Numbered from the stretch's first letter, positions 18,174 through 58,598 are shown. The stretch is DNA of 64,000 bases from a virus (IMGVR_UViG_3300002835_000086); one strand, 5' to 3'. Made by a program: numbers and translations. Notes: generated by a model not told the origin, from the letters alone.

Positions 18174-18188
18174 AATTCACCAACCATC

Positions 18189-18929
18189 TTATACCCACTC
18201 CATCATAATCTGAGACTTCCCGTTCCATTCTTTGATTTGACGTTTCGGAACCCAAAACTCCATCTCTCCGATTTCCTCAACTCGTTTGAGGTATGCCTCA
18301 CGGTAAGCTCCGGCTTCAGAAGAGTTCTTGATGTAAGGGATTCTCATATGCTTTGAACAAATCTTACCCATTCCTGTCAACATTGAGAACTCATCAGTCA
18401 AATCTTTACCACAACACATACAAACCTTCATACGGCTTACGGTCATCTTACCTGAGAACTTAACCGCCTTTGGTGAGATAGCCAAAATCTTAGTGATATC
18501 CAAGATTGTTGGGTTGAACTCAAGGTTGTAAGTCTCCTTCATTTGTTGACCGATTTTACGTCCAACCTTGATGGTTTCTCCTACGGTTGGAAGTTTGAAG
18601 TTGATAGTCTTAGACTTGTCTTCTTCCTTCTCGATTTGTTTGAGAGCTGCGTTGATTTGTTTGTTGGTCAACGTTCCCCACTTTTGAAGTTTAAGAGAGA
18701 TGTCTTTCACGAAGGTGCTCTCACCGTTGTATTCAACGATTTTCTTCAACTCGGGACGTTCCTCAACGTTCAAAGTGGTTACAGGTGCATTGAGACATTT
18801 CTCAGCGGCTTCGACTTGCTTGGGAGTCAAACGACCCCACTGGTTAAGAGATTCTTTCATTTTAAGGATGAAGCTGTTGTTACCTTGGTAGTTACGAACT
18901 TTTTCTTGGGTAGTGATGGTGGTTGTCAT
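18189..18929 (-). CDS. hypothetical protein with internal duplicated motif (start moved to MTTTITTQ)
   Basis: The ORF track extends to 19061, but that extension contains a terminator hairpin and promoter motif. A TATCTTTGTA box sits about 25 nt upstream of the ATG at 18929. The protein has two copies of a WG(R/T)LTxKQ(V/I) repeat and a C-terminal CxCCGK...CSKH motif. Confidence 0.5.
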   Translation of the reverse strand: MTTTITTQEKVRNYQGNNSFILKMKESLNQWGRLTPKQVEAAEKCLNAPVTTLNVEERPELKKIVEYNGESTFVKDISLKLQKWGTLTNKQINAALKQIEKEEDKSKTINFKLPTVGETIKVGRKIGQQMKETYNLEFNPTILDITKILAISPKAVKFSGKMTVSRMKVCMCCGKDLTDEFSMLTGMGKICSKHMRIPYIKNSSEAGAYREAYLKRVEEIGEMEFWVPKRQIKEWNGKSQIMMEWV

Positions 18930-18947
18930 ATTGGTTGGTTTTAAATT

Positions 18948-18985
18948 CAATACAAAGATAAGGAAAGTTTTGGTTCCCACAACAC
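18948..18985 (-). promoter_or_regulatory. TATCTTTGTA promoter motif for the 18929 gene
   Basis: Same TATCTTTGTA(t/g)TG box as upstream of the 19495 gene. Confidence 0.4.
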
Positions 18986-18989
18986 AATT

Positions 18990-19023
18990 CAAAAAAAAAT
19001 CCCCTCTTTTTTTAGAGGGGATT
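18990..19023 (-). terminator. rho-independent terminator
   Basis: tcccctctttttttagagggga hairpin with a 10-A run (T-run on the minus strand) just 3' of the 19031..19495 gene. Confidence 0.65.
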
Positions 19024-19030
19024 GTCACTC

Positions 19031-19495
19031 TTAGTTTTGAGTGAAGGCTTGGTCTGCCCAAGTCTTAGCTCCGAAGAATTCCCAAATCTTCATATCACAC
19101 ATATCGGGGAAAGACTCTCTCATTGTACCTACAGTCAACACGTCCAAGAATCCTTTGTCGATACTGTTCCACTTGTTTCCTTTGGTGGTCAATACGTTCA
19201 TCCAGTTACCGTATTCGTCCTTCACTTGAACGTTAACAAGTGTGTTCTTCTTGTATCCACTGATAACTCGCTTGGGAGTTCCTTTGGTGTCGTGGATACT
19301 GATGAACCCTGCTCGACACTTACCAGCGATACGGAACTCATACTCTTTGTTCTCGTCTTTAAGGTGGTTAGAAACCGATACAGTGTGACGTTTGCTCTTT
19401 ACAATGGTTTCGAAACTTCCGTAGAATACGTCTCCTGCCATTACGCCTTCAGTAACTTTGATGATAGATTTTGGGGTGGTGGTTGTGGTTGTCAT
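19031..19495 (-). CDS. hypothetical protein (MTTTTTT N-terminus)
   Basis: 154 aa; shares the poly-Thr N-terminus and upstream promoter box with the 18929 gene. Confidence 0.5.
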   Translation of the reverse strand: MTTTTTTPKSIIKVTEGVMAGDVFYGSFETIVKSKRHTVSVSNHLKDENKEYEFRIAGKCRAGFISIHDTKGTPKRVISGYKKNTLVNVQVKDEYGNWMNVLTTKGNKWNSIDKGFLDVLTVGTMRESFPDMCDMKIWEFFGAKTWADQAFTQN

Positions 19496-19507
19496 ATGTG
19501 TGTGTAT

Positions 19508-19545
19508 TTGTTTTTAACACTACAAAGATAGTGATATTATCCAAA
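19508..19545 (-). promoter_or_regulatory. TATCTTTGTAGTG promoter motif
   Basis: TAnnTTTG -7 element about 25 nt upstream of the ATG at 19495. Confidence 0.4.
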
Positions 19546-19560
19546 CTGCCAAAACTTTTT

Positions 19561-19986
19561 TTAAGAATTTCTACAACTTCCGTCACAACCTTGTCCGGCA
19601 CCTTCGTAGTAGTTGGTCCTGAAGTCAACGTGGGTTCCTGTTGGTACGTTTGTTTTTCTACCACATTGGATACAAACTTCAAACCCATCGATACTGTTAC
19701 CTAAACTTGTAACCATACCGTTCTCGTCTATCTGTAACGTAACGTGTTCATCTCGGTTAGATTTCATTAACTCAATCTCATTCCAATATTTTTGACGAAC
19801 ATATTCACCGAGAGAATAATCGTTTGGGTGGGAGAGTATTTCTTTTGATGTGATTTTTATTTCCATAGTTTTTTTTGTAAAAATAGTTTTAAGTTGTTTG
19901 TATGTAAACAAGATACCAGTCTTGTGGTATTTATTAAATATCTTGAGGTAAAATATGAAATTAGATGACGTTTTAAGAATTTTCAA
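19561..19986 (-). CDS. hypothetical zinc-finger protein
   Basis: CIQCGRKT ... GCDGSCRNS Cys cluster at the C-terminus. Confidence 0.45.
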   Translation of the reverse strand: MKILKTSSNFIFYLKIFNKYHKTGILFTYKQLKTIFTKKTMEIKITSKEILSHPNDYSLGEYVRQKYWNEIELMKSNRDEHVTLQIDENGMVTSLGNSIDGFEVCIQCGRKTNVPTGTHVDFRTNYYEGAGQGCDGSCRNS

Positions 19987-20479
19987 ACATTCAGGTGGTT
20001 ACCCAAACCCAAAAGCAACAGATATTTTGGATTTTATGAATCTGAACAAAATCAAGTTCGCCCAAATGGTTGCAGATAGATTTGGTGAATCAGGGGCCGA
20101 TAAGTTCTTCGACACCTCAGTAAAACGTTTATCTCAAAAAGATGGTGTATTTAAAATTTACCCATATGCTCAATGGGGACAGGATAACCCAAGTTATCTT
20201 GATTTGGATTTTAGTAATTCAAATACGGTTTTAGAAGAAGTTGGTAACCCTTACATTGGTATTTTGATTGAAGATTGGCAATTAAAAGATTCTTTAGTCG
20301 AGTTTATGGATGATGAAGGTAATACTCAAACATATACATTAGACGAACTTTTTGAAGTGATATCTGATGAAGAACCTTACCAACTTGATGATGCAATAGA
20401 AGATTGGATGTCTGTCATACAAAGGTCAATTTCAAATTACTTAGGAGTTCCGGTAGTTTTAGGAAATAGGAAAAAATAA
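19955..20479 (+). CDS. hypothetical acidic protein (plus-strand island)
   Basis: 174 aa, followed by a strong terminator. Confidence 0.5.
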   Translation: MKLDDVLRIFKHSGGYPNPKATDILDFMNLNKIKFAQMVADRFGESGADKFFDTSVKRLSQKDGVFKIYPYAQWGQDNPSYLDLDFSNSNTVLEEVGNPYIGILIEDWQLKDSLVEFMDDEGNTQTYTLDELFEVISDEEPYQLDDAIEDWMSVIQRSISNYLGVPVVLGNRKK

Positions 20480-21844: not shown

Positions 21845-21867
21845 GCACTTTGTAAAAGTTTTTTTTG

Positions 21868-21941
21868 TTGCGGGAGTCGGACTCGAACCGACGGCCTCAA
21901 GGTTATGAGCCTTGCGAGCTACCAACTGCTACCACCCCGCG
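21868..21941 (-). tRNA. tRNA-Met(CAU) with initiator (fMet) features
   Basis: Minus strand: CGCGGGGTGGTAGCAGTTGGTAGCTCGCAAGGCTCATAACCTTGAGGCCGTCGGTTCGAGTCCGACTCCCGCAA. The cloverleaf has anticodon stem CAAGG/CCTTG with loop CTCATAA (anticodon CAT), T-arm GTCGG-TTCGAGT-CCGAC and a 7-bp acceptor stem with a C1/A72 mismatch. It is near-identical at both ends to E. coli initiator tRNA (CGCGGGG...CCCCCGCAACCA). CCA is not encoded. There is one extra nucleotide in the D stem. Confidence 0.85.
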
Positions 21942-28229: not shown

Positions 28230-29393
28230 TTAATCGTTATAAATTGAACCACTTTTATTTTCAGACTCTTCGAATTGATGTTGTTCCATAATATCTTTAA
28301 GTGGTGATTTTTGAGTATCAACTTTAGTATTCATATTATGAATAATCTTATCAAGAGTTAATGCAAAGTCCAGAGTTTCGGATATGATACCAACAATTTT
28401 ATATGGGTCACCATTTGATGCCGGTCTACGGTCTTCAACATAACCCTTCCATTCTTTTGATGTAGACAATGGAACTCTGATTGATGCACCTCGGTCAGCA
28501 ACCCCCCAACTAAACTTGTCAATAGATTGGGTTTCGTGTTTACCAGTCAAACGAAGATTGTTATCAGAACCGTAATTGTTAATGTGTAACTGATGACGTG
28601 AATCAAAGGCGTTAAAGATGTTTTTGAAGTATTCATCACCACCTTCATTTCTCATCTTGTCATTTGAGAAGTTACAGTGTAATCCTGAACCATTCCAATC
28701 ACCCATCACAGGTTTAGGGTGGAATTCAATCTTAAAACCATAGTCCTCAGACATTTGTTGTAAAATGTATCTCGACATCCACAAATCATCACCGGCCTTT
28801 AATTTACCTTTGGAGAATACCTGGTACTCCCACTGACCCAATAAGACCTCGGCGTTTGTACCTGTAATTTCAATACCTGCCAAGATACAATTTTCCATAT
28901 GAGTATCCACAAATTTTCTACCGTTAACTTGTCCGTTACCTACACCACAATAGTATTTTCCTTGTGGTTCAGGATATCCATTCTCAGGGAAACCCAAAGG
29001 TCTACCATCTTTCATAATGGTATACTCTTGTTCAAAACCAAACCAAAGGTCCTCTTCTTCTTCCCCAACAAGACTTCTTGTATTTGATACGTGTGGAGTC
29101 CCATCGGGATTCATAACCTCACACAACACCAAGAAAGACCATAGACCACCTTCGTTAAGTGAGTTGTGATAAACTCTAACAGGTTTCAAAATACAATCAG
29201 AAAAATGTCCGTCAGCTTGTTGTGTTGATGAACCATCAAAACTCCACTCAGGGCAATCCTTCAGTGTTATAATATCCCCATATGGAATATTCTGAAGACC
29301 AGTCTCTTCTTTTTCAATCACCTTAACCTTACTTCTAAGATTAGGTTCTGGCTGATACCCATCCAACCACACATATTCTAATTTAACTTTCAT
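28230..29393 (-). CDS. glutamine synthetase type II (eukaryote-like GSII) homologue
   Basis: N-terminal KVKLEYVWLDG, GPYYC-like KYYCGVGNGQVNGRKF and NRGASIR-like DRGASIRVP motifs; at 387 aa it is the size of GSII. Confidence 0.8.
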   Translation of the reverse strand: MKVKLEYVWLDGYQPEPNLRSKVKVIEKEETGLQNIPYGDIITLKDCPEWSFDGSSTQQADGHFSDCILKPVRVYHNSLNEGGLWSFLVLCEVMNPDGTPHVSNTRSLVGEEEEDLWFGFEQEYTIMKDGRPLGFPENGYPEPQGKYYCGVGNGQVNGRKFVDTHMENCILAGIEITGTNAEVLLGQWEYQVFSKGKLKAGDDLWMSRYILQQMSEDYGFKIEFHPKPVMGDWNGSGLHCNFSNDKMRNEGGDEYFKNIFNAFDSRHQLHINNYGSDNNLRLTGKHETQSIDKFSWGVADRGASIRVPLSTSKEWKGYVEDRRPASNGDPYKIVGIISETLDFALTLDKIIHNMNTKVDTQKSPLKDIMEQHQFEESENKSGSIYND

Positions 29394-31068: not shown

Positions 31069-32820
31069 TTAAAGTTTTATAATGTAATAAGTCTCTCCTT
31101 GGACGGTCTCTTCGTGAACCGCCCCATCATTGTGTGACATCATATCATAACTCTCATTATCGATAACAGTATCTATAAATTTTTCCTTATCAATAAAATC
31201 ATCTAATTCTAATCCGTAATCCTCCGCGTATCCAGTTGGGTTGTATCTAACTTCATCCAACTTACTTTCAATCATATTTTCAATATCATCGTCTGAAAAA
31301 TCACCTTCAGGATTTTCTTCTATTTCTTCTTTTTGTTCTTCTAATTCAGTAATATAGTCTTCCAATTGACTAATTCTATCGTCAATTTTATCAACCTTAT
31401 CTTCATCATCAATCCCATATTTAATTTTTTCAAGTCTTTCTATCTCCCTTTGTGTTTGTAAAACTCTAGCGTCAATAATTTTAATAGTTTCAACTTGTTT
31501 TGAATCTAATTGTCTTTGGGAATCGTCTAAATAAGCATCAGGCTCTTGGTAAACGTCCTGATTGAAATAATCATCAAACCAATTAAGTATTTCATCCTCA
31601 TTAACCGCATTATCCTTAACCCAACTAGCAAACCCATCATACCCTTCAGTATCAACCATATCCTCAACATACTCTCTCAACGCATCATCCATCTCCGTCT
31701 CGGTACCCACAGTATATTCATCACCATATAGTTCAGTTGCAAATTTTTGCATTCCATAGTGTTGGGATTCCAAAGGTATTAAATCGTAAACGTCTTTATA
31801 TTCTTTAAACTCATCTAACTCTTCTTCTAATTGTTCAATCTGAGATAATAAATCATACCTTACAGTATCAGAATTTTCATATTCTTCTTGAAGTTCACTT
31901 ATTCTTTCTAAAATATCCGTTCTTCTTTCTTCATCATCTTCACTCATAGATTCGATTTCTCCCTCTGAAACCAAATAATCAAAAAGTGCGTGTGCCATCA
32001 ATCCTATAGTTGGGCAATCAGGACCTAACTCCCACTCTTTATCAATTCTTCGTTCATTTGCTTCTTCCATAGACAATCTTTTTTCTTGAGCAATCCTTTT
32101 TTCTTGTTCTTTTTTATCAATATCAGTCTTTGTTATGTAGTAATCTAAATTACTCATTTTGTCTTCATATTTTCTCTCAAGAAAACTAATAATAAACGAA
32201 TACACAACATTAAAGTTTGGTATAGAATTTAAAACATCCTCCATACCAACTCTCACATTTTTAACATAAAAATAAGGTTTGGAGTTTCTAACAAAAACAA
32301 TTGTTATTTTTTCCTCAGGATTATTTTTATTAATTAAATAGACAATTTTTTTGTCCCCATATTCCCCATATGTTATGTTAAACGAGTTTTCACTACTAAC
32401 GTCGACACATCCTACAGAATCTTTACCATAATAACAAGCGCCTGATTGGGTAGATGGTGAAACAATCAATAATTTATCATCTTCAAATATTATGGACTTG
32501 TTATTGGTAGTGGTCATATTGTTTAGATATTGACCGGTAAAACTATCTATTTGGTTTTTTAAATCTTCATATGAACCAAACTTATTAATGTCAGTTGTTT
32601 GTAAAACACCTTTAAGTCTTTCAAATTTCTGTGTCAAATCAATAATATTAATTAAGTTAATATTATCCCCTTCTTCAGGGAATTTGTTTGCAACCCAATC
32701 CCAATACTCAGGTTGGATGTATTTTACTATTGACGATAAGAGTGGTAAACTCAGTTTGTCCTTATATTTTGTTGTAAAATCAGACTTACTTTGTTCTTTT
32801 AATAACTTACGGATTGACAT
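31069..32820 (-). CDS. large acidic hypothetical protein (coiled-coil and Asp/Glu-rich C-terminal half)
   Basis: 583 aa with a very acidic coiled-coil C-terminal two-thirds; sits upstream of the fibre genes. Confidence 0.55.
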   Translation of the reverse strand: MSIRKLLKEQSKSDFTTKYKDKLSLPLLSSIVKYIQPEYWDWVANKFPEEGDNINLINIIDLTQKFERLKGVLQTTDINKFGSYEDLKNQIDSFTGQYLNNMTTTNNKSIIFEDDKLLIVSPSTQSGACYYGKDSVGCVDVSSENSFNITYGEYGDKKIVYLINKNNPEEKITIVFVRNSKPYFYVKNVRVGMEDVLNSIPNFNVVYSFIISFLERKYEDKMSNLDYYITKTDIDKKEQEKRIAQEKRLSMEEANERRIDKEWELGPDCPTIGLMAHALFDYLVSEGEIESMSEDDEERRTDILERISELQEEYENSDTVRYDLLSQIEQLEEELDEFKEYKDVYDLIPLESQHYGMQKFATELYGDEYTVGTETEMDDALREYVEDMVDTEGYDGFASWVKDNAVNEDEILNWFDDYFNQDVYQEPDAYLDDSQRQLDSKQVETIKIIDARVLQTQREIERLEKIKYGIDDEDKVDKIDDRISQLEDYITELEEQKEEIEENPEGDFSDDDIENMIESKLDEVRYNPTGYAEDYGLELDDFIDKEKFIDTVIDNESYDMMSHNDGAVHEETVQGETYYIIKL

Positions 32821-33059: not shown

Positions 33060-33084
33060 AGTTGTAATATGTTAGTAAAATTAA

Positions 33085-33113
33085 AAGGGTGAAGAAATTC
33101 ACCCTTTTTTTAT
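33085..33113 (+). terminator. rho-independent terminator
   Basis: aagggtgaagaaattcaccctt followed by ttttttt. Confidence 0.6.
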
Positions 33114-33121
33114 ATTTATAA

Positions 33122-34144
33122 GTGATGACAGGGAAATTACAAAGATTAATCGACGATGTTAATAATGGTAAATTTGATATTATCAAAGATTTTTTTGGTG
33201 ATATGGAAACTTTTTTGGACTATCTTGGTAAAAAAGGTTTGATACACGAATTAGACCTTATTAACAACGAAGAAGAATTCGAATATGAAGTTAACAAAAT
33301 AGCCCTCGCAATTAAAGAACATAATCCCGAAAAATTTAGAGAATATGTTTTATCTTCATTAAGTGATGTTACTTATGAAAATGGTGAATACTATGTGACT
33401 TTGAATGATAAAAGTAGACTCGCGTATCTTTTTTGTGATGATAGAAGAAATGGTATGTCTCAATCAACAATATCAGAGATACTAGATGGTGAATGGGATT
33501 TTGATTTTTGGGATACTACCGATAATGTTTATAGGGATGTTATTCAAGAACTAAATAAGGATAATCTTACTTATTTATCAAAAAAAATAAGTAACGAATT
33601 ATCTGACGTTAAGGTAGAACCTGAAACAGAATTGTTAGAAGAAATTGCCGAGGAACAAGGTCATCCTGAATATGTAACCTTAACCCCCGAGTTGATTCAC
33701 GACAGAATATTCAATGATGAGGATTCAACAGAAAGTATTTTGAATGAAACCGAAAACATTAAATCAGATTTACACTCATTACATAACAGAGCATATGCAA
33801 ATGCTTATGAAGATGAGGTGTATAGTGGTATAATGGATGAACTTGAAACATTTTTTGATATGCGCCATTCTGATTGGATAACAGTTCCAAGTAGTGTAAA
33901 CCCAAACAAATCTTATACCTATTTCAAAGTTAAAATAAATAATTTTGATTCAGAGATTTCCGATTACCTTAATAACGCGAAGAATCATAATGAACCATTA
34001 AGTAATTATGGTGACTATCTTAGTATTTTGAGTGAAAATATTAGTTATGGTAGTGCCAATTGTTTGGTATATTACACGCCTGATTATGCGGATTGGCCAA
34101 AAACAAAAGAAAATATTAACGAACTTTTTGGTGACTATTTTTAA
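33122..34144 (+). CDS. hypothetical acidic protein
   Basis: 340-aa plus-strand ORF, convergent with the first collagen-like gene. Confidence 0.5.
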
Positions 34145-37100
34145 ATAATCCCCTTTAGTTTAGCTTTATCCAAAACTTTTTTAGCTCTCTCTTCAAGAGA
34201 TGTTATTCTAACCTCTTGTTCTTTTAACGCTTCAATGTTAACGGCAATCATTTCTTTATAATTCATTGTTAACACTTTACCTTCAGTATAAATAACTTCA
34301 GGAACATAAGGCAAAACTTCTTGAGCAATAAATCCAATAGCTTTTTTGTCATTAGAACTATATTCTTTACCTCTCCATTTAAATGTGACACCTCTAATAC
34401 TTAATATCTTATTTAGAGCATCACCGATAGGTTTAACATCTTTTTTCAGTCTTTCATCTGAAGGACCTGTTGGTCCTTGTGGACCTTGAGCTCCTTGTGC
34501 TCCGAATGTTGAACTAGCACCTCCTTGAGCCCCTGGTGCTCCTTGTGCCCCTGTTGGACCTGGTGTTGCAGAACCTTGAGCACCTGTTGGTCCTTTAAGA
34601 CCTGTAGGTCCTTGTGCACCGACGGCTCCCTCAAAACCTTGTGAACCTTGAGCTCCTTGAGCCCCTGTTGCACCTTGTGCACCTTGTGGTCCATTAGGAG
34701 ACGTTGGCCCTTGAGCCCCTTGAGCTCCTTGAGCTCCAATAGCACCTGAATTTCCTTGAGCGCCTTGAGCACCTTGAGCGCCGGCTGTACCTGAACCTTG
34801 AGCACCTTGAGGTCCTGTTGGTCCTGTTGCACCTTGAGGTCCTGTTGGTCCTGTTGCACCTTGAGCACCTTGAAATCCTTGACCCCCTGTAGGTCCTACG
34901 GCTCCTTGTGAACCTTGAGCCCCTTGAGGTCCTGTTGGTCCTGTTGCACCTTGAGCTCCTTGAGCTCCAACAGGTCCTTGAGCACCTGTGGCTCCTTGGA
35001 ATCCCTGCTGACCATTAGGTCCTATTCCACCTACGTCCCCTTGAGCACCTTGCGCTCCTTGGAATCCTTGTCCTCCTGTTGCTCCTTGAGACCCTTGAGC
35101 ACCTGTTCCTCCTTGAGCTCCCTGAAAACCTTGTCCTCCTTGCGCCCCTTGTGGACCTTGAGCTCCTGTGGCACCTTGAGCACCTTGAGCTCCCTGCCCA
35201 CCTTGCGCTCCTTGTGGACCTATTGCTCCTTGGAAACCTTGTGCTCCTTGAAAACCTTGTCCTCCTTGAGCCCCTTGAGTTCCTGTTGCTCCTTGAGCAC
35301 CTTGAGCCCCTTGTGCTCCCTGTCCTCCTGTTGCGCCTTGAGCTCCTTGTGCTCCTTGTCCTCCTGTTGCTCCTTGGACTCCTTGTCCACCTGTTGCTCC
35401 TTGCGCACCTTGGTTACCAACAGCACCTTGAGCTCCTTGGAAACCTTGAGCCCCCTGACCTCCTTGTGCACCTTGTACTCCAACAGCACCTTGAGCCCCT
35501 TGTGCTCCTTGGAAACCTTGTCCTCCTTGAGCACCTTGAGTACCTGATATACCTACAGAACCTTGAGAACCTTGAGCCCCTTGTCCTCCTTGAGCACCTT
35601 GAGTTCCTGATACACCTTGAGCTCCTTGAGCCCCTTGGAAACCTTGACCTCCTTGAGCACCTTGAGTTCCTGTTGTACCTTGAGCCCCTTGAGCTCCTTG
35701 AAAACCTTGTCCTCCTTGAGCTCCTTGGGTTCCTGTTGCTCCTTGAGCTCCTTGAGCTCCTTGAGCTCCTTGGAAACCTTGAGCACCTTGGGTTCCTGTT
35801 GCACCTTGAGCCCCTTGAGCTCCTTGGAAACCTTGACCTCCTTGAGCCCCTTGGGTTCCTGTCGCTCCTTGTGCACCTTGAGCTCCTTGTGCTCCCTGTC
35901 CACCCTGAGCACCCTGAGTTGCTGTCGCTCCTTGCGCTCCTTGAGCTCCTTGAGCTCCTTGACCACCTTGAGCACCTTGGTTACCAACTGCCCCTTGTGA
36001 ACCTTGAGCCCCTTGTGCTCCTTGTCCACCTTGGGCTCCCTGATTACCTTTAGCCCCTTGAGCTCCTTGCGCCCCTTGGGCTCCTTGACCACCTTGAGCA
36101 CCTTGGTTACCAACTGCCCCTTGTGAACCTTGAGCCCCTTGCGCTCCTTGTCCACCTTGCGCTCCTTGTCCACCTTGAGCACCTTGAGCCCCTTGTGCTC
36201 CTTGAGCACCTTGTCCTCCTTGAGCACCTTGTGTTCCCGTTGCACCTTGAGCACCTTGAGCTCCTTGGAAACCTTGTCCACCTTGAGCACCCTGTGTTCC
36301 TGTTGCTCCTTGAGCCCCTTGTGCTCCTTGGGCTCCTTGTCCACCTTGAGCACCCTGTGTTCCTGTTGCACCTTGAGCACCTTGTGCTCCTTGGGCTCCT
36401 TGTCCACCTTGGGCACCTTGGTTACCCTTTCCACCTTGAGCACCTTGTGCTCCTTGGGCTCCTTGTCCACCTTGAGCACCCTGTGTTCCTGTTGCACCTT
36501 GAGCACCTTGTGCTCCTTGGGCTCCTTGTCCACCTTGGGCACCTTGGTTACCCTTTCCACCTTGAGCACCTTGTGCTCCTTGGGCCCCTTGTCCACCTTG
36601 AGCACCCTGATTACCTGTCGCACCCTGAGCCCCTTGAGCTCCTTGAGCTCCCTGTCCACCTTGTGCACCTTGGTTACCAACCGCTCCTTGTGAACCTTGA
36701 GCTCCTTGAGCTCCTTGTCCTCCTTGGGCGCCTTGGTTACCAACCGCTCCTTGTGAACCTTGAGCTCCTTGAGCACCTTGTCCACCTTGAGCACCTTGAT
36801 TACCTTTTCCACCTTGAGCGCCTTGAGCTCCTTGAGCTCCTTGTCCTCCTTGGGCACCTTGGTTACCAACCGCTCCTTGTGAACCTTGAGCTCCTTGAGC
36901 TCCTTGTCCACCTTGAGCGCCTTGATTACCTTTTCCACCTTGGGCGCCTTGAGCACCTTGAGCACCTTGTCCTCCTTGAGCCCCTTGGTTACCTGTTGCC
37001 CCTTGAGCTCCTTGTGCGCCTTGTGAACCTTGCCCTCCTGTTGCTCCTTGGGAACCTTGAGCTCCTTGGGCTCCTTGACTACCAACCGCTCCTTGAGCAC

Positions 37101-37425
37101 CTTGGTTACCAGTATTACCCTGAGCACCTTGTCCTCCTTGGGCACCTTGATTACCTTGAGCGCCTTGTGGTCCAGCATTTACATTACCTTTCCATCCGGT
37201 AGAGTCTATTATTAATCCGTAATTGTTTGTAACTGTATTAGCACTTAAATTTGTATTTTGTACTTGGAATATAGGTGCTGTCTTGGCAATTTTTAGATAT
37301 GTTGTTGTTTGATTTACAACATAATTCAATGTAGAACTAGAATATACCAAATCACTTCGAGTATTCCCCGAATCATAAAATTGTATTGTTATACTTGCAG
37401 GTACTATTATTATATTCTCAGCCAC
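34141..37425 (-). CDS. collagen-like (Gly-X-Y) fibre protein with C-terminal tail-fibre intramolecular-chaperone (peptidase S74) domain
   Basis: About 300 uninterrupted G-X-Y triplets ([12 protein letters not shown]...). A ~85-aa N-terminal domain is shared with the two paralogues. The C-terminus, [22 protein letters not shown]...IGFIAQEV, matches the S-D-x-R-L-K autocleavage site and chaperone fold of phage tail-fibre/tailspike C-terminal domains. Confidence 0.85.
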
Positions 37426-40400
37426 GTAATTTTTCTTCTAATTCAGTTAATGATGTTTTAAGGACATCCATTCTTTTTTGATTTTCTTTTACAAAAGATA
37501 CTCCAAGAGTAACAAGTAGTTCATACTGTAAAGATTTATAACCAAACTTATCTTCCCAAACAATTTCAGGAAAATATTTTTCAACTTGTTGGGCGATAAA
37601 ACCTATACTTCGTTTTTTAAGTAAATACTTTTCATTGTCTTTATACAATGAAAGTTGTGGTATATTTTCAACCCAATCAAAAGATACACCATTCATATTA
37701 ACAACATCAATAGCTCTATCAAATTTCTTGATGTTTTCTTTCAATCTTCTATCTGAAGGTGGCCCTTGAGGTCCTTGAGCACCTTGTGCTCCTTGTGGTC
37801 CCGTTTTACCAGCATTACCTTGAGCACCTTGAGCACCTTGTGGTCCTGTAACACTAGCACCTTGAGCTCCTTGAGAACCAGTACCTCCTGCAGGTCCTGT
37901 TGCACCTTGAGCTCCTTGGACTCCTTGTGGACCTGTCCCACCTGTAACAGCTCCTTGAGCGCCTTGTGCTCCTTGTGCCCCTGCAGCTCCTTTTCCTCCT
38001 TGAGCACCTTGTGCTCCTGTGGAACCCTGAGTTCCGGCCTTTCCTGTTGCACCTGTAGCACCTTTTGGTCCCGATGGTCCTTGAGCTCCTGTTGGTCCTT
38101 GAGGTCCTCTTGACCCTTGTACACCTTGTCCTCCTGTCTGACCTGCAGCACCTTGAGCCCCCTGTGTCGCACCCGCAGGTCCTTTTGTTCCTCCCGCACC
38201 TTGAGCACCTGTAGGACCTGGACCTCCTGTAGGACCTGTCGCTCCTTGAGACCCTTGAGAACCTTGAGCTCCAGCGGGTCCTTGAGCACCTTGTGTAACA
38301 CTCGGATTCCCTTGTGGTCCTTGTGAACCTGTTGCTCCTGTGGCACCCTGAGCTCCTTGGGTACCTCCTTGAGCACCTGTGGCTCCTTGTGGGCCTTGAG
38401 GTCCTTTTGCTCCTTGAGCTCCTTGAGGACCTCCTTGAGCCCCTATCGGACCTTGGGCTCCTTGAGCTCCTGTAGCACCTGTTGCACCTTGAGTACCTCC
38501 TGTAGCACCTTGGAATCCCTGAGGTCCTGTAGCACCTGTAGCACCCTGAGCCCCTTGAGGTCCTCCTTGTGCACCAACAGGTCCTTGAGCACCTGTAGCA
38601 CCTGTAGCACCTGGAGCCCCTTGCGGAGTACCTTGTGGTCCTTGAGCACCTTGAGCTCCTGTTGGTCCTGTAGAGCCTGTTGCTCCTTGGACCGCTCCTT
38701 GAGCACCTTGATTACCAACAGCACCTGTTTGTCCAGTCGCACCTTGTGCCCCTTGAGCACCTTGAGGTCCTCCTGGATTTCCCTGAGCACCTTGGGCTCC
38801 TTGTCCACCTTGAGCACCCTGTGCACCTGTTGGTCCTCCCTGTGCACCTGTTGGTCCTTGAGCACCTTGGGCTCCTTGAGCACCTTGTCCTCCTTGTACA
38901 CCTCCTTGAGAACCTGTTGGTCCTTGAGCTCCTGTCGCACCTGTGGCACCTGTCGCTCCTTGCGTTCCTCCTTGAGCACCTGTTGGTCCTTGAGCCCCTG
39001 TTGCACCTGTGGCTCCTGTAGCCCCTTGAGGTCCTCCTTGTGCACCAACAGGTCCTTGAGCTCCTGTAGCTCCTGTGGCTCCCGTCGCACCCTGAACTCC
39101 ACCTTGAGCACCTGTTGGTCCTTGAGCTCCTGTAGCTCCTGTGGCCCCTGTTGCACCCTGAACTCCACCTTGAGCACCTGTAGGTCCTTGTGCACCTGTT
39201 GTTCCATTAGCACCCGTTGCCCCCTGAACTCCACCTTGAGCACCTGTTGGCCCTTGTGCACCTGTTGTTCCATTAGCACCTTGAGCCCCTTGAGGTCCTC
39301 CTTGTGCACCTGTTGGTCCTTGGGCACCTGTTGTACCTTGAGCACCTTGAGCTCCTTGAGAAGCTCCTTGTGCTCCTTGTGAACCAACGGCTCCTTGAGC
39401 ACCTTGTGCTCCCTGATTTCCCTGAACTCCACCTTGTGCTCCTGTAGGTCCTTGGGCACCTGTTGTACCTTGAGCACCTTGAGCCCCTTGAGAAGCCCCT
39501 TGAGCTCCTTGTGAACCAACGGCTCCTTGTGCACCCTGTGCTCCCTGATTTCCCTGAACTCCACCTTGTGCTCCTGTAGGTCCTTGTGCACCTGTTGTAC
39601 CAGCGGCACCTGTTGCCCCCTGAACTCCACCTTGAGCACCTGTAGGTCCTTGTGCTCCTGTGGCACCTGTCGCACCTGTTGCCCCTTGGACACCTCCTTG
39701 AGCTCCCGTACTACCTTGAGCTCCTTGAGCACCTGTCGTACCCTGAGCACCCTGAGAAGCACCTTGTGCACCTTGTGAACCAACGGCTCCTTGAGCACCT
39801 TGTGCTCCCTGATTTCCTTGGACACCACCTTGAGCTCCCGTAGGTCCTTGGGCACCTGTCGTACCTTGAGCACCTTGAGCACCTTGTGATGCACCTTGAG
39901 CTCCTTGTGAACCAACGGCTCCTTGAGCACCTTGTGCTCCCTGATTTCCTTGGACACCACCTTGAGCACCTGTTGTCCCTTGAGCACCTTGAGCTCCTGT
40001 CGCCCCTGTCGCTCCTTGCGTTCCTCCTTGAGCGCCCGTACTACCTTGGGCACCTTGGGCACCTGTGGCTCCTGTCGCTCCTTGTGTTCCTCCTTGAGCA
40101 CCTGTACTACCTTGAGCACCTTGTGCCCCTGTCGTACCTTGAGCACCTTGTGAACCTCCTTGAGCACCTTGTGAACCAACGGCTCCCTGAGCACCTTGGG
40201 CTCCTTGTCCTCCTTGTGTCCCACCTTGAGCACCTGTACTACCTTGAGCACCTTGAGCACCTGTCGTACCTTGAGCACCTTGTGAACCTCCTTGAGCTCC
40301 TTGTGAACCAACGGCTCCTTGAGCACCTTGTGCTCCCTGATTTCCTTGGACACCACCTTGAGCACCTGCAATACCTTGAGCACCTTGTGCCCCTGTTGTT

Positions 40401-40840
40401 CCTTGCGCCCCTTGAGACGCTCCTTGAGCACCTTGTGCTCCTACTGCTCCTTGAGCACCAGTACTACCTTGTGCTCCTTGAGCTCCTGTACTACCACCCC
40501 CACCTTGAGCTCCCGTTGTTCCTTGTGCCCCAACATTTCCTTGAGCTCCTTGAGCACCTTTAATAGTTGTTTGTGGTCCAATCCATACACCGGCATTATT
40601 AATCATATTTTGACCACCAACCCATAAACCTGATGGTGAACTTGATATTGTAACACCTGTAGTTGTTATGTCATTATTACTGAAAACTACTAATGATGGA
40701 CTTGTTGTTGCAGAAAATTTGACATCACCCGGTGCAACCATATTAATTTGGATACTATCCGCAGCAGACGCCCCCTCGTATACTATATGAGGCGATGAGT
40801 TTCCTGTAGTTCCACTTGGATATATTATTACGTCTGCCAT
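37418..40840 (-). CDS. collagen-like fibre protein 2 with periodic G-X-Y-Z interruptions and C-terminal S74 chaperone domain
   Basis: About 310 triplets. One-residue insertions (GASQG, GGVQG, GGTQG, GGPQG) recur roughly every 7 triplets through most of the helix. The C-terminus reads [29 protein letters not shown]...[16 protein letters not shown]. Confidence 0.85.
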
Positions 40841-40843
40841 ATA

Positions 40844-43800
40844 TTAATTTCTTTCAACCTTTTCTTCTAAATTTGTTAATAGAGAATCCAAGTCATCAAT
40901 AAATACTTGTTGCTCTTTTATGGCTTCTACTAAATAAGCGTTAAGTGAGGTATAGTTTAAACTATAATAACCGCCACCCCTTAATTCAATTATATCTGGT
41001 ATTACACTTCTAACTTCTTGTGCAATAAAACCAAACGAGTGTAGTTTACCATCTCGTTTCATTGCCTCATAGTTGGGGTCTAATTCGTTCCAATCAAATT
41101 CAACAGGATTTAATTGTAAAACACTTTCTAACGAGTTTTCAATAGTAGTAATTTCTTGTTTTAAACTAATATCTGAAGGACAAGTATTAGGAACACCAAT
41201 AATTAAACAACCTCCTGTGTCTAGGTCGTAATAAAGTGATGATAAGTCATACCATACGGGAGCAGGTAAAGGAGTTACACAACTAAGATTTGCACAGTCA
41301 GTCGCATTTTCAAACACAGATGTGTTGTTAGTCCAAGTAGTAATATCGTCTGGCGAGTATATGTCCCCATAAAATCCGCGGTTTAATGAACAAGCACTAC
41401 CCGGGTCACCCGCATAATAACCTGAATATTGAAAACAAGATGCTGATGGTGGTCCTGCCGGTCCTGGCGCTCCAGGAGCACCCTGAGCACCTTGTGGTCC
41501 CGTATCACCTTGAGCTCCCGTAGCACCTGTTAGTCCGTCGGCACCTGCAGGTCCTGGTGCTCCTTGAGCACCTTGTGTTAACCCTTGTGCACCTTGTGGT
41601 CCTTGAGCGCCTTGTGCACCTTGTGGTCCTTTTGCACCTGTAGGTCCTGGTGCTCCTTGTGCACCTAATGGACCGGCACCTCTAAGTTCCCCTATTCCCC
41701 CTTGAGCCCCCTGAGCACCTGATGGTACAATTGGTGTAGGTCCTTGAGCACCTTGTGCACCTTGTCCTCCACCTGCTCCTTGAGCTCCTTGGAATCCAAG
41801 AGGTCCTTGAGCACCTTGAGTAGCACCTGTTGGTCCTTGAGCCCCTGTAGCACCTTGTGGTCCAGGAAGTCCAGCAATTCCTTGTGTTCCAACATTTCCT
41901 TGAGCACCTGTAGGTCCGGGAGAACCTTGAGCACCTGTTGCACCGATATTTCCAATAGGACCAGGACCTGTTCCTTGAGCTCCTTGTGGTCCTTGAACAC
42001 CAGGAAATCCTGTGTTTCCTTGTGCACCTGTGGCACCTGTTGCACCTGTTGGTCCAACATCTCCTTGTGAACCTTGAAATCCAAAAGTACCGGTACCACC
42101 ACCAGCACCTGTATTTCCAACATCACCTTGTGCACCTGAAAAACCTGTGGCACCTTGAGCTCCTTGAGAACCTGTAGGCCCAACCGGACCTGTTGCTCCA
42201 CCCGCTCCTTGAGAACCTTGAGCTCCTGTAGCACCAGTATTTCCAACATTACCTTGTGAACCTTGAGCTCCTTGAGCCCCTTGTGGTCCTCCTCCTCCCA
42301 CAGGACCCGCAAAACCTGGAAATCCTGTAGAACCTTGAGAACCTTGAGCTCCTTGAGCCCCTTGTGGTCCAACGGCCCCTTGAGAACCCTGAGCTCCTTG
42401 AGCTCCTTGAGCACCTATTGTACCTGAATTACCTGTTGGCCCAAAGACTCCTACCGTTCCTTGAGCTCCTTGTGCTCCTTGTGGTCCTCCTGAACCTTGT
42501 GGACCTCGAGCCCCTTGTGAACCCTGAGCACCTTGTGCTCCTTGTGCACCCACATTACCTGTAGGTCCAACGGCTCCTTGTGAACCCTGAGCACCTTGTG
42601 CTCCTTGTGCACCTTGGTTACCTGTAGGTCCAACGGCTCCTTGTGAACCCTGAGCTCCTTGGGCTCCTTGCGCACCTTGGTTACCTGTAGGTCCAACGGC
42701 TCCTTGTGAACCTTGAGCTCCTTGTGCTCCTTGTGGTCCTCCTGAACCTTGCGGTCCAACGGCTCCTTGTGAACCTTGTGCTCCTTGTGCTCCTTGTGGT
42801 CCTCCTGAACCTTGCGGTCCAACGGCTCCTTGTGAACCCTGAGCACCTTGTGCTCCTTGTGCACCCACATTACCTGTAGGTCCAACGGCTCCTTGTGAAC
42901 CCTGAGCACCTTGTGCTCCTTGTGCACCTTGGTTACCTGTAGGTCCAACGGCTCCTTGTGAACCTGTATTACCTTGAGCTCCTTGGTTACCGGTATTTCC
43001 TTGGGCTCCTGTATGTCCTGTTGAACCTTGTGCTCCTTGAGCTCCTGTTGCACCTCCATTACCTGTTGGTCCAACCGCTCCTTGGAAACCTGTGTTACCT
43101 TGTGCTCCTTGATTACCTGTGTTTCCTTGTGCACCTGTATGTCCTGTTGAGCCCTGAGCACCTTGTGCACCTGTTGCCCCACCATTACCTGTAGGCCCTA
43201 CATTACCTTGTGAACCTTGAGCCCCTTGTGCCCCTTGAGCCCCTTGAGCCCCTTGTGGTCCTACATTACCTTGTGAACCTTGTGCTCCTTGTGCTCCTTG
43301 TGGTCCTGTTGAACCTGTTGGTCCGACATTACCCTGAGCTCCCTGATTACCTTGAGCACCTGTTGGCCCCACGTTTCCTTGTGCACCTGTGTGTCCTGTT
43401 GAACCCTGAGCACCTTGTGCTCCTGTAGCTCCCGCATTACCTGTTGGTCCTACGTTACCCTGAGAACCTTGATTTCCTTGTGCACCTGTATTACCAGTAT
43501 TACCTTGAGCACCTGTATGTCCTGTTGAACCCTGAGCGCCTTGTGCTCCTGTCGCACCTCCGTTACCTGTTGGTCCGACATTACCCTGAGCGCCCTGATT
43601 ACCTTGTGAACCTTGTGACCCTGTTGCACCTGTTGGTCCGACATTACCTTGTGCTCCCTGATTACCTTGTGAACCTTGTGACCCTGTCGCTCCTGTTGGT
43701 CCGACATTACCCTGAGCACCTTGATTACCTTGAGAACCTTGAGCTCCCACATTACCTTGTGCACCAGGATGTCCTGTTGAACCCTGAGCTCCTTGAGCAC

Positions 43801-44422
43801 CTGTCGCACCTCCGTTACCTGTTGGTCCGACATTACCCTGAGCACCTTGATTACCTTGAGAACCTTGAGCTCCCACATTACCTTGTGCGCCAGGATGTCC
43901 TGTTGAACCCTGAGCTCCTTGTGCACCTGTCGCTCCTCCGTTACCTGTTGGTCCGACATTACCCTGAGCGCCCTGATTACCCTGAGCACCTGTTGGTCCC
44001 ACGTTTCCTTGTGCACCAGGATGTCCTTGAGAACCTTGAGCATTTGCTGAACCTTGAGCTCCTTGATTACCCTTTCCACCTTGTGAACCTTGTGAACCCT
44101 GAGCACCCGTATTTCCAATGGCTCCTTGAGCTCCTTGATTACCTTGGAATCCTGTTATATTTGTTCCAGGTCCTAACCAAGCACCTGTACCATTTAATAC
44201 TTGAATTCCTCCAATAGTTAGATTATTAATGATATTAATATCATCATACGCTTGGATACCACCCGATGACATTAATAATGTAGAACCCCACTTTATAGAA
44301 GTACCAGCACCATAAGGTCTGACCTCTAACCTCAAAGTTCCCGTATTTTCAAAATCAATATAGGGAATCCTTCCGGGATTCGGGACTAAATTACCAGGTA
44401 CAATTGTTATATTTTTTGCCAT
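40844..44422 (-). CDS. collagen-like fibre protein 3 with Cys-rich distal domain and C-terminal S74 chaperone domain
   Basis: About 280 triplets, then a ~110-aa Cys-rich non-collagen domain ([11 protein letters not shown]...CANLSCVTP...[12 protein letters not shown]), then [10 protein letters not shown]...FGFIAQEV. Confidence 0.85.
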
Positions 44423-44483: not shown

Positions 44484-44765
44484 TTAAATAATATGTTTTT
44501 TGATTATATCAACAGCTTCAGTTAATTCATTATAGTCCCTATCAGGAGTATACATATGAGGAATGGTTTTTTCTTTAGTTTCTTCAATAATGAGTAATGC
44601 TGGTACAAAATCATTTTCTGTTAATTGTGAAAAGATATCATACTCTTCTTCATACTCATCAATGTCTCTATCAACGAAGTCAATGTTCTCTTTGACTAAC
44701 ATCTCTTTGAAGTCAGTACAATGAGGACAGCCTTTCATTGTATAAACAATAATTGTTTTACTCAT
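44484..44765 (-). CDS. glutaredoxin / NrdH-like redoxin
   Basis: CPHC active site in YTMKGCPHCTDFK; 93 aa. Confidence 0.7.
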   Translation of the reverse strand: MSKTIIVYTMKGCPHCTDFKEMLVKENIDFVDRDIDEYEEEYDIFSQLTENDFVPALLIIEETKEKTIPHMYTPDRDYNELTEAVDIIKKHII

Positions 44766-45073
44766 TAGTTCATTAGTATTTCAGTTAATTCAGGTGTCGG
44801 CACAACTCCTGTTCTTGTCATATCAACTACACCATTTTTGAAGAGTTTTAAAGTCGGTACCGCTCTGATTCCCATCTCTGTTCTTACGAAGTCGTGGTCT
44901 GTGTCAATATCGTATTTGTATACAGGTATTTTTGTTTCATTCTCAGATGTGATTTTCTCAAGTGATGATAACAATACTTTACAAGGCCCACACCAAGTTG
45001 CGTATAAATCTAAGAGGAAACTTTCCTTGTTATTTATTTTTTCTTTCAATTGTTCTGTCGTTAACTGTTCCAT
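44765..45073 (-). CDS. thioredoxin
   Basis: WCGPCK active site; 102 aa. Confidence 0.9.
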   Translation of the reverse strand: MEQLTTEQLKEKINNKESFLLDLYATWCGPCKVLLSSLEKITSENETKIPVYKYDIDTDHDFVRTEMGIRAVPTLKLFKNGVVDMTRTGVVPTPELTEILMN

Positions 45074-45749: not shown

Positions 45750-47084
45750 TTATCTTCTTCCTTCTAACTCTGTGAAGTCATATAGACCTGGACCAACCTC
45801 GAATGCCACATCAGTGATTTCCTTAGGTAATACTATATTATTTGAACCCATAATATTCATAATCATAATCTCAGGTAAAGTGGCAACACACGCAGGTATT
45901 GACTTAACCTCAGGACAATTTAGAACTGCAAAATATGCTAATTTTTTAAGTTCACATATCGCATCAGGAACACTAGTTATACACCCATCAAATGTAAGCC
46001 TATCTAAGTTTGTGAATCTTGAAATTGTATCAGGAATTCTAAATGTAATTGGTGTTCTAGTGTTTCTAGTTGAGATATTAATTTTGTGTATGTCGTCAGG
46101 TAATGAATCAAATAACTCATCCAAACCATACAACCCAATAAACTTACCTACAGAACCAGACTCAAAGTTATCAATAACCAATTCTTTACCTTGGTGTGTT
46201 AAACCTTTAGCAAATTCAGGTTTGAAGTAATCTTTAAGTTCTGCCATAGGACCGTTCAAATACTCAATTAAATTAACACTACGGTCATCCTTATCCATAA
46301 ACTGATTTGATTGGAAATGGAATTGGTATCTTTCTTTTGGTAATCCTGTTGTTGGAGATACATTAGTATCATTTGGATTATAGATAACATACAAAGGTCC
46401 GTCTTTAATGTATCTATCGAAGTAACTTAAACCAGGTGCTGAAGTACACCAACGAGTCTCTTGTTGATTACCACCGTAAAAACAAGCGGCTTCTTTACCT
46501 CTTTCTCCTTTATCAGATATCTTAATAACTCTCCAATTTTTACCCTCAAATCCAGATTCAGCACCAGGGTGTACTGGCGCAGCCTTTCTTTCGGCTTTAG
46601 TTGTTGTCGCCATAGTTAAGTCAAAGTCCTTAACAGCATCGTATAAAGCTTCAGGTGTTAGTTTATTGATATCCCTCATTTCAAGAGGTAACTTACCTTT
46701 AAACCTTTTAAACTTGGTCAAATCCTCAGTCACTTTGTAAAGGTCTTCCATAAACCTTTCTCTCATAACTTTAACTTCTCTCTCGTGACCTTGTTCACCT
46801 CTTGGGATTTCAGTCTTAACGTTCATATAACTCTTAATTAACCAAGGAGTGTATTCACCAACTTTAACTCGAGATAATTCCTCTTTTGATGCTCTTTCCA
46901 AATCAACATCATTTAAACGAGATGTTGGGTCGGCTTGGATTAATTCGAAGAACTCTTGTTTGCTCAATGGAGCCTTTAAAGGTTTACCTTCTTTATCTTT
47001 TTTAGGTAATACAAACTTATCCATCAAAACTTCAAGTCTTGATTGTTCCAATATGATTTTCTTAAGTACGTTTGCGAACTTCAT
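45750..47084 (-). CDS. hypothetical protein with C-terminal leucine-rich-repeat-like region
   Basis: 444 aa. The C-terminal ~90 aa show Leu-x-x-Leu periodicity (RFTNLDRLTFDGC...LKKLAYFAVLNCPEV). Confidence 0.5.
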   Translation of the reverse strand: MKFANVLKKIILEQSRLEVLMDKFVLPKKDKEGKPLKAPLSKQEFFELIQADPTSRLNDVDLERASKEELSRVKVGEYTPWLIKSYMNVKTEIPRGEQGHEREVKVMRERFMEDLYKVTEDLTKFKRFKGKLPLEMRDINKLTPEALYDAVKDFDLTMATTTKAERKAAPVHPGAESGFEGKNWRVIKISDKGERGKEAACFYGGNQQETRWCTSAPGLSYFDRYIKDGPLYVIYNPNDTNVSPTTGLPKERYQFHFQSNQFMDKDDRSVNLIEYLNGPMAELKDYFKPEFAKGLTHQGKELVIDNFESGSVGKFIGLYGLDELFDSLPDDIHKINISTRNTRTPITFRIPDTISRFTNLDRLTFDGCITSVPDAICELKKLAYFAVLNCPEVKSIPACVATLPEIMIMNIMGSNNIVLPKEITDVAFEVGPGLYDFTELEGRR

Positions 47085-57788: not shown

Positions 57789-58598
57789 TTATAGATAATC
57801 AAAAAGTTCACTAGACTCATTACGCAACTTACGTAAAGCCTTCTCTTTAATTTGTCTAACACGTTCCTTAGTTAATTGGAAGTCATTACCAATATCTTCA
57901 AGTGTACGGGTATTTCCTGACAATCCGTAGTAATCTTCAATGATAATTTTTTCACGGTCATCTAAAACTTCTAAGATACCTTTCAACTTGTCTTTAAGGA
58001 TGTCTTTTGTATGAAATCCGGAGTCAGGTGCCAAAGCATCAGGATTACTCAAAACATCCAACAAAGTATCACCATCTTCATTGAGGGGATTATCATAATT
58101 AACCGTATAAGGAAGGGTTACAAACTTTTCGGGTAACTCAACCCCACTCTTCTCAAGTTCTTTTTTAGCCTTTTGAAGTTCTTGAACAACATTCACAGGA
58201 AGACGAATAGTTCTCGCATTCTCGTTAAGTGATTGTAGGATTGATTGTCTTACCCACCAAACCGCATATGAAATAAACCTTAGCTGTTTGGACCAATCGA
58301 AATTTTCAACAGCTTTAAGTAATCCAAGATTACCTTCAGCAATTAGGTCACAAAGTTCTAATCCTTGATTTTGGTATTGTTTGGCAACAGTAATTACAAA
58401 TCGGAGATTACCTGTTAACAATTCTTGTTCAATTTGACGTTTCTCTGTTAACGTCAAATCATCCGATAACATTCTCTGAGCGAGTTGTTTTTCTCTATCA
58501 GGTGTCATAACTTTTATCTTACGAATATCTTTAAGATAAGTTGCAATCTCTTCTTGATTAATAGGGATACTTAAATTTTTGTCTTTCATATGTCTCAC
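57789..58598 (-). CDS. sigma-70 family RNA polymerase sigma factor
   Basis: Region 2 LRFVITVAKQYQNQGLELCDLIAEGNLGLLKAVENFD, region 3, and region 4.2 TLEDIGNDFQLTKERVRQIKEKALRKLR. Confidence 0.9.
   Translation of the reverse strand: MRHMKDKNLSIPINQEEIATYLKDIRKIKVMTPDREKQLAQRMLSDDLTLTEKRQIEQELLTGNLRFVITVAKQYQNQGLELCDLIAEGNLGLLKAVENFDWSKQLRFISYAVWWVRQSILQSLNENARTIRLPVNVVQELQKAKKELEKSGVELPEKFVTLPYTVNYDNPLNEDGDTLLDVLSNPDALAPDSGFHTKDILKDKLKGILEVLDDREKIIIEDYYGLSGNTRTLEDIGNDFQLTKERVRQIKEKALRKLRNESSELFDYL

Follow-up and report, generated by a model that had tools for sequence, protein, structure and literature searches.

A conserved trio of length-matched collagen-like S74 chaperone genes in an uncultured jumbo-phage lineage

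In K1F endosialidase, T5 pb1 and S16 gp37 (6f45), a C-terminal Peptidase_S74 domain (PF13884) of ~105-110 amino acids (aa), with a serine, a lysine five residues on and a helical C-terminal segment, is presumed to trimerise, to fold the protein ahead of it and to be released. The domain folds a triple beta-helix or a beta-structured tip in these proteins, and its action is gated by arginine. T5 pb1 and K1F use a dyad of the Ser1264/Lys1269 type (T5 pb1 numbering), and Arg1250 of T5 pb1, contributed by a neighbouring chain, couples cleavage to correct trimer folding (PMC4690869). Collagen-like (pro)phage fibres have a Gly-X-Y stalk, and the combination of collagen with S74 recurs among them (PHROGs 6320, 5073 and 819; E. 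coli O157:H7, PMC3368898). Here we analyse a 64,000-nt stretch of viral DNA (IMGVR_UViG_3300002835_000086, the window) in which three tandem genes, g1, g2 and g3, encode giant collagen-like chains with S74 domains, as an earlier note made from the sequence alone had proposed.

The S74 domains of the window abut collagen (g1 and g2) or a Cys-rich module (g3), unlike those of K1F, T5 and S16, and the N-terminal domains are unrelated to theirs. Compared with the collagen-like (pro)phage fibres, the stalks are long at ~300 triplets (animal fibrillar collagens have ~330), come as three matched paralogues, carry a different N-terminal family and consist of an uncharged Ala-Gln sequence. Likenesses are also found in cellular proteins. 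The procollagen C-propeptide is a C-terminal trimerising and registering domain, is associated with C-to-N folding and is removed by proteolysis, but it shares no homology with S74, which would cut itself off instead of relying on a separate proteinase; hydroxyproline and Hsp47 are lacking here. Complement C1q has three adjacent paralogous genes with an N-segment, equal collagen length and a C-terminal trimerising domain. Its heterotrimer is demonstrated, whereas for the window a heterotrimer is a hypothesis; gC1q and S74 are unrelated, and here a single chain carries a tip. BclA, of the exosporium hairs of B. anthracis and B. cereus, forms a Pro-poor, Thr-containing Gly-X-Y filament, stabilised by glycosylation on Thr, in which a variable repeat number sets length. 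It is bacterial, much shorter and retains a C1q-like C-terminal domain, and here Gln rather than Thr dominates the Y position.

We lean towards reading the region as a conserved, translationally coupled three-gene module of an AT-rich uncultured jumbo phage that encodes three length-matched homotrimeric virion fibres, whose folding would start at the C-terminus and which S74 would then trim. Phage fibres that combine collagen and S74 are known. The new elements are the N-terminal family, the conserved coupled trio, the length matching, the insertion after every seven triplets in g2, the tip module and the uncharged helix with its periodic G3G interruption. The literature searched describes neither this trio nor phage collagen paralogues of matched length.

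Architecture and length matching of the trio

Three minus-strand genes of 1094, 1140 and 1192 aa had been proposed, and the open reading frames (ORFs) lie at exactly those places (Table 1). Each encodes an N-terminal domain, a collagen-like stalk and a C-terminal S74 domain. Counting Gly-X-Y in runs of at least three, we obtained 297 triplets for g1, 298 for g2 and 296 for g3, with a predicted helix length of 254-267 nm (0.286 nm per residue); earlier estimates of ~280-310 triplets and ~250-270 nm thus held. All three stalks match Pfam Collagen (PF01391; cut-off 27.2 bits) with 306, 239.5 and 367.9 bits for g1, g2 and g3, respectively (E = 1.4e-112 for g3). A super-period of seven triplets is common to the three genes, although its form differs. 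The stalks of g1 and g3 run uninterrupted for up to 139 and 230 triplets with a 21/42-residue period (63/126 bp in DNA). The earlier description "almost pure Gly-X-Y" does not suit g2: of its 34 single-residue insertions, 30 fall between blocks that are each exactly seven triplets long, so that the period is 22 residues in the protein and 66 bp in the DNA. These insertions have no counterpart in g1 or g3. The insertion-after-seven-triplets signature is kept in the g2 orthologues of the related loci L087, L071 and L085. Long ORFs in the other frames of g1-g3 are by-products of the repeat composition.

The genes are tightly spaced. In the window, g2 starts 3 nt past the g3 stop, and the GTG start of g1 overlaps the end of g2 by 8 nt (junction GTGGCTGA). 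Related loci that span the region always contain three tandem genes of collagen plus S74 architecture. The first two in transcription order are spaced by 0-4 nt and the third begins with GTG or TTG in an 8-nt overlap with the second; the -7 offset and the V/L start of the gene in the g1 position occur in all orthologues. This overlap, together with the GTG/TTG start, indicates translational coupling of the trio. A promoter and terminator scan of the operon borders gave nothing that exceeded shuffled expectation.

The G+C content of the g1-g3 region is 47-57%, against ~32% for the rest of the window. The excess stems entirely from the first two codon positions of the Gly, Ala and Gln residues. 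At the third codon position (GC3) the trio has 0.14-0.15, below the 0.24-0.31 of neighbouring genes, which indicates that the genes are native. A foreign island and a giant eukaryotic virus were considered as sources and were ruled out by this low GC3 and by phage-type neighbours that include a bacterial-type sigma factor.

The lengths of the three stalks are matched within each genome. Across 16 distinct genome variants, which are related phages and not phylogenetically independent, triplet number ranges from ~96 to 317 and is nearly equal between the paralogues of a genome, with a Pearson r of 0.997-0.998 for each paralogue pair. The mean within-genome coefficient of variation is 1.6%, compared with 27% for shuffled combinations, and none of 20000 permutations was as good. 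When Gly-substituted triplets are included and insertions set aside, the three chains have triplet-equivalents of 98/98/98 in L003, 118/118/117 in L021, 144/143/141 in L087, 153/154/152 in L073, 157/157/155 in L074, 167/167/166 in L085, 214/216/215 in L071 and 342/340/338 in L076; the window has 299/299/300, a value corrected by hand to exclude G-x-x pairs inside the g3 Cys module. Three genomes with large inserts differ by 8-18 triplets between paralogues. Triplet number agrees between paralogues better than residue span, which matches less well because g2 is consistently ~3.5% longer in residues.

At least eight length classes are present among the related genomes. The paralogues are old: their N-terminal domains are 18-27% identical and their S74 domains 32-34%. 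The repeat arrays are specific to each paralogue in DNA, with no long matches across paralogues, and orthologues of each type are recognizable from genome to genome. Taken together, this indicates that the three lengths changed together repeatedly. Such matching implies a physical ruler or co-assembly. For biomaterials, the trio could provide a trimerisation tag that trims itself, along with naturally occurring variants of different length.

A sister clade keeps the trio in a modified form. Its super-period is 13 triplets (40-41 residues) in all three genes, versus seven in the clade of the window. Type-specific hidden Markov models showed permuted pairings of the terminal domains: the g3-type N-domain with the g2-type C-domain, the g1-type N-domain with the g3-type C-domain and its module, and the g2-type N-domain with the g1-type C-domain. 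No N-type or C-type is lost or doubled in any sister-clade genome, with some N-type assignments weak (22-44 bits). The helix of the middle chain is interrupted halfway by a globular insert of 200-340 aa (L077, 5319-10001; L084, 4680-10001). In L077 this insert matches Laminin_G_3, a ConA-like lectin family, with 28.7 bits against a cut-off of 27.6, which supports a role in carbohydrate adhesion; the larger insert of L084 has no Pfam match.

Terminal domains and composition of the stalks

The C-terminal domains had been predicted to be S74-type chaperones, and the check named for this, a profile search, returned Peptidase_S74 for all three proteins, with 57.9, 45.2 and 48.8 bits at a gathering cut-off of 22 (E = 8.4e-13 for g3). 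Each has a serine followed five residues later by a lysine (S989/K994 in g1, S1029/K1034 in g2, S1083/K1088 in g3). The pair is invariant among homologues and aligns with that of the solved tail-fibre chaperones 6f45 and 8jov and, weakly, with that of MYRF (7dc3). A motif S-D-x-R-L-K had been ascribed to all three; g3 reads S-D-I-S-L-K, without the arginine. In g1 and g2 the serine directly follows the helix, as had been proposed, and in g3 a module of 90 residues lies between the two. Self-cleavage at the serine is likely, although not assured, judging from the conserved pair.

The g3 module had been described as a Cys-rich globular insertion of ~110 aa and a candidate receptor-binding tip. 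The insertion is present, at a smaller size of ~90 aa (residues 993-1082) with six cysteines. Among 20 homologues, which are metagenomic, the cysteines are invariant and the loops hypervariable, beside a well-conserved S74 domain. AlphaFold2 (AF2) predicts a compact alpha/beta domain with a predicted local distance difference test score (pLDDT) of 87-95, and a fold search returned no significant structural neighbour. The pattern of conservation and the predicted fold fit a scaffolded, fast-evolving binding domain that would form the distal end of the fibre once cleaved, in keeping with the proposed tip. It most likely binds the host surface. Only one chain, the g3 type, carries the module across related genomes.

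Directly upstream of g3, 61 nt before its start, lie genes for glutaredoxin (44484-44765) and thioredoxin (44765-45073), both on the minus strand; the order thioredoxin, glutaredoxin, g3 is kept in L001, L002 and L003. This order may reflect no more than a nucleotide-metabolism block that happens to lie there, or may concern redox handling of the six-Cys module.

A shared N-terminal domain of ~90 aa had also been claimed. The homology stands at the profile level, and pairwise similarity is marginal (BLASTP E = 0.1, 7e-5 and 0.002). A profile built from the three sequences retrieved 35 cluster representatives among 1.84 billion proteins. Nearly all begin at residue 1, and 23 of the 25 sequences retrieved continue into Gly-X-Y. 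The alignment of 25 sequences displays the motifs M-A-x-N-I-x-I-x-P and P-x-I-x-F, and V-G-G-x-x-x-I-N-x-x-G-x-W-x-G-P immediately before the helix. The domain had no match in Pfam, in a PDB profile search or by tblastn in 50,697 deposited phage records. Judged by these searches, it is a small, unannotated and new family. The AF2 model is all-beta, at low confidence (pLDDT 62).

The stalks contain 35-38% Gly, 15-20% Ala, 17-26% Gln, 5-11% Thr and 2.5-6.8% Pro, with 7-9 charged residues per ~900 helix residues and no KGE or KGD triplets. The earlier note had called the composition atypical for collagen. This is correct with respect to animal collagen and not with respect to prokaryotic and viral collagen-like proteins, in which Thr at Y is the norm (PMC8968730, PMC11923368). 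The composition is nevertheless unusual in its Ala-Gln dominance and scarce charge. A salt-bridge clamp mechanism has been proposed for long collagens (PMC11923368) and, given the near-absence of charge, cannot apply to these helices. Proline is enriched toward the C-terminal end of the helices, in the last fifth of each; of the 21 binned prolines of g1, 17 are in the last two tenths. Its position at this end fits nucleation beside a C-terminal trimerising domain. A domain of trimerisation type, S74, directly follows the collagen and its Pro-rich adjoining segment, and would serve the collagen in this role. From the host-guest peptides of Persikov et al. 2000, Ala at X and Gln at Y reportedly rank well for helix stability among uncharged residues other than imino acids. 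For collagen biophysics, the trio would provide natural helices of ~255 nm that are nearly devoid of proline and of charge and lack hydroxyproline, and one of the three chains has a perfectly periodic single-residue (G3G) insertion.

Proposed assembly of the fibres and alternative readings

Under the reading that we favour, the ~90-aa N-domain would attach each chain to the particle, and the S74 domains would trimerise and fix the chain register. The Pro-enriched C-terminal fifth would then nucleate a triple helix that zips toward the N-terminus; C-to-N zipper folding is established for collagens (PMC11923368). S74 would remove itself at the conserved serine, with Lys(+5) activating, so that mature g1 and g2 would end as bare helix and mature g3 in a Cys-scaffolded globular tip. 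The products would be three separate homotrimers in equal amounts, with g1 and g3 as continuous rods and g2 as a rod hinged every 6 nm. The three fibres would act as one set, spanning an equal distance or packing side by side, and would for this reason have the same triplet number.

Whether the trio builds three equal homotrimers or one heterotrimer is a clear contrast for phage biology. A single A-B-C heterotrimeric collagen fibre, in which the S74 domains pick one of each chain and set the register in the manner of C1q or collagen IX, and which has a mixed N-terminal anchor and a single g3 tip, seems to us unlikely, though the next most probable reading. To our knowledge it would have no precedent, either as a heterotrimeric S74 assembly or, outside animals, as a heterotrimeric collagen. 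Such a fibre would account for a coupled trio of always three genes, hence equimolar, for triplets that match over a 3.5-fold range and do so better than residue span, for a super-period common within each clade (seven or 13 triplets) and for a tip on one chain only. The permuted N/C pairings would be neutral if all chains share one molecule, and incommensurate interruptions do occur in animal heterotrimers (PMC11923368). Against this, the 34 g2-only insertions would bulge from a mixed helix every 6 nm, and the interruption positions of the sister-clade chains do not coincide at zero offset (p = 0.06-0.8). The g3-type S74 sits 90 residues beyond the helix end, whereas the others abut it. Several genomes mismatch by 8-18 triplets, L001 by 14, and the permutation itself depends in part on the weak N-type assignments. 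We know of no characterised S74 fibre or spike that is not a homotrimer, and of no heterotrimeric collagen outside animals. Homotrimers are favoured because known S74 proteins are homotrimeric, because the 34 insertions of g2 have no partner and because the sister-clade interruptions are unaligned.

Three ordinary, independent receptor-binding tail fibres of a baseplate, with equal lengths that stem from recent duplication or concerted repeat turnover, would agree with PHROG best matches annotated as tail fiber, with the annotation of cultured-phage S74 relatives as tail fibres and with the fact that phages with several receptor-binding proteins are common. We regard this as improbable, since the paralogues are old, the arrays are paralogue-specific in DNA and at least eight length classes have changed together; cleaved g1 and g2 would moreover have no distal domain for receptor binding, and no tail module was recognized nearby among the ORFs scanned. 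Still less probable, in our judgement, is that the chains are not virion parts and form a collagen-like coat or matrix released or displayed in infection, with S74 as a folding aid. The genes do lie amid genes for replication and metabolism, with thioredoxin and glutaredoxin immediately before them and no structural neighbours found, and S74 works outside virions, for instance in MYRF (PMC3742443). However, the M-A-x-N-I-x-I-x-P N-termini show no evident signal peptide or membrane segment, and the anchor-stalk-tip layout and the lectin insert suit adhesion fibres. Structural genes of jumbo phages are also often scattered.

Several points weigh against three self-trimmed homotrimeric virion fibres. 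If the homotrimers are independent, it is not obvious why their lengths should match to ~1%. Such homotrimers also leave unexplained why two of the three chains never have a tip, why the genes always form a trio and why one of each N-type and C-type is retained after the pairings were reshuffled. No arginine occurs within 20 residues upstream of the serine in g1, g2 or g3. An upstream arginine is a feature of the T5/K1F mechanism and not of the Pfam family; its absence nevertheless means that cleavage is not assured and that any coupling to the collagen helix must work differently. The anchor role of the N-domain is only a guess, because the model of the domain is of low confidence and matches nothing. 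No capsid, tail or baseplate family was recognized among ~45 ORFs scanned in the window, where the scan covered about two thirds of the ORFs of at least 120 aa. The repeat numbers come from short-read metagenome assemblies. In L001 (GCA_043533415.1, 98.2% identical), g1 (16998-20156) is 42 aa shorter than in the window, equal to 14 triplets or two 63-bp units, and has one further amino-acid difference, while g2 and g3 have the lengths found in the window. The shorter g1 is either real copy-number variation or a repeat collapsed in the assembly.

The name "tail fibre" used in the earlier note did not hold up as an identity. PHROG "tail fiber" matches cover the collagen and S74 segments only and, with no tail module recognized, the name stands as an analogy. 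The ORFs that flank the trio in L084 likewise contain no capsid, tail or baseplate family. As a guess, with only a slight preference, we place the fibres on the tail or baseplate rather than on the capsid. Long thin appendages are known from other jumbo phages, namely capsid fibres in Tenacibaculum PTm1/PTm5 and tail hairs in Erwinia Y3 (PMC13282480); tblastn of the N-domains in 50,697 records found no sequence link to them.

Genome context and lineage

Outside the trio, the window encodes an SbcCD-like nuclease, RNA ligase, a sigma-70-type sigma factor, DnaJ, two DNA methyltransferases and DUF3310, in addition to a glutamine-synthetase-like protein, UDP-galactopyranose mutase, GT2 glycosyltransferases, thioredoxin and glutaredoxin (Table 1). 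An Hc1-like histone gene was seen in L001 and L003, and the set is typical of the replication and expression genes of large phages.

Table 1 Positions of the trio, its domains and other features in the window
Feature	Position (nt)	Strand	Basis
g1, 1094-aa collagen-like chain, GTG start	34141-37425	-	ORF
g1 N-terminal domain, aa 1-84, g1-type	37174-37425	-	
g1 collagen domain, aa 85-988: 297 triplets, runs 139 + 125, 21/42-residue super-period (63/126-bp unit)	34462-37173	-	
g1 S74 chaperone, aa 989-1094, Ser989 + Lys994, plus stop	34141-34461	-	Pfam match 989-1044; PDB relatives 6f45, 8jov
g2, 1140-aa collagen-like chain	37418-40840	-	ORF, Pfam, junction sequence
g2 N-terminal domain, aa 1-94, g2-type (M-A-x-x-I-I-Y-P)	40559-40840	-	
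g2 collagen domain, aa 95-1028: 298 triplets, 7-triplet blocks, 34 insertions, 22/44-residue period, 66-bp unit	37757-40558	-	
g2 S74 chaperone, aa 1029-1140, Ser1029 + Lys1034, plus stop	37418-37756	-	Pfam match 1029-1094
g3, 1192-aa collagen-like chain with tip module, first gene of the trio	40844-44422	-	ORF, Pfam; identical protein on 6 public contigs
g3 N-terminal domain, aa 1-90, g3-type, putative virion anchor	44153-44422	-	Profile family, alignment
g3 collagen domain, aa 91-992: 296 triplets, unbroken run of 230, 21/42-residue super-period	41447-44152	-	
g3 Cys-rich module, aa 993-1082, 6 Cys, candidate distal tip	41177-41446	-	20 homologues, AF2
g3 S74 chaperone, aa 1083-1192, Ser1083 + Lys1088, plus stop	40844-41176	-	Pfam match 1083-1143, motif alignment
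RNA ligase	4711-5724		
tRNA-Met, single	21867-21941	-	
Sigma-70-type sigma factor	57789-58598		
SbcC-/SbcD-like nuclease subunits	59187-61559 and 63007-63789		

The trio locus is present on six public contigs, and a search with a conserved neighbour gave 62 related loci in IMG/VR, on contigs of up to 326 kb, which identifies the source as an uncultured jumbo-phage lineage. Megablast and blastn against 50,697 phage records returned no useful relative, and no relatives were found in 185,579 species-representative genomes. The closest deposited relative of the SbcC-like gene, at 23% identity, belongs to an uncultured 484-kb phage. A 444-aa protein (45750-47084, minus strand) is found in most of the 62 loci with 55-64% identity and is a useful lineage marker; it has no Pfam or PHROG match.

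In the ENA scaffold of a related phage (L002, 7372-14111), the g3 and g2 arrays are broken by runs of N. On this scaffold and in JGI data, gene callers give only C-terminal fragments of 150-280 aa, which leaves the full-length genes badly under-represented in public protein sets.

A glutamine-synthetase-like gene (28230-29393, minus strand) matches Gln-synt_C with E = 9.5e-16 and Gln-synt_N with E = 4.8e-10. As pure speculation, it could supply Gln late in infection for helices that contain 17-26% of this residue. A sugar cluster (14599-18101 and 6434-7153, minus strand) encodes Glf (E = 1.9e-75), two GT2 enzymes, one with TPR, and a GtrB-like glycosyltransferase. It suggests galactofuranose-containing glycans. 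The earlier note linked a glycosylation cluster to possible Thr glycosylation of the helices; the sugar genes lie 16-20 kb from the fibre genes.

Two very acidic proteins are encoded 3' of the trio, one of 583 aa (31069-32820, minus strand) and one of 340 aa (33122-34144, plus strand). The 340-aa gene has no Pfam or PHROG match, and only three loci were anchored on it. It is convergent with g1 and overlaps the g1 stop by 4 nt, a position kept in L002 and L003. Between the divergent 583-aa and 340-aa genes, a perfect hairpin with an 11-bp stem (33083-33108) is flanked by A- and T-runs and is terminator-like in both directions.

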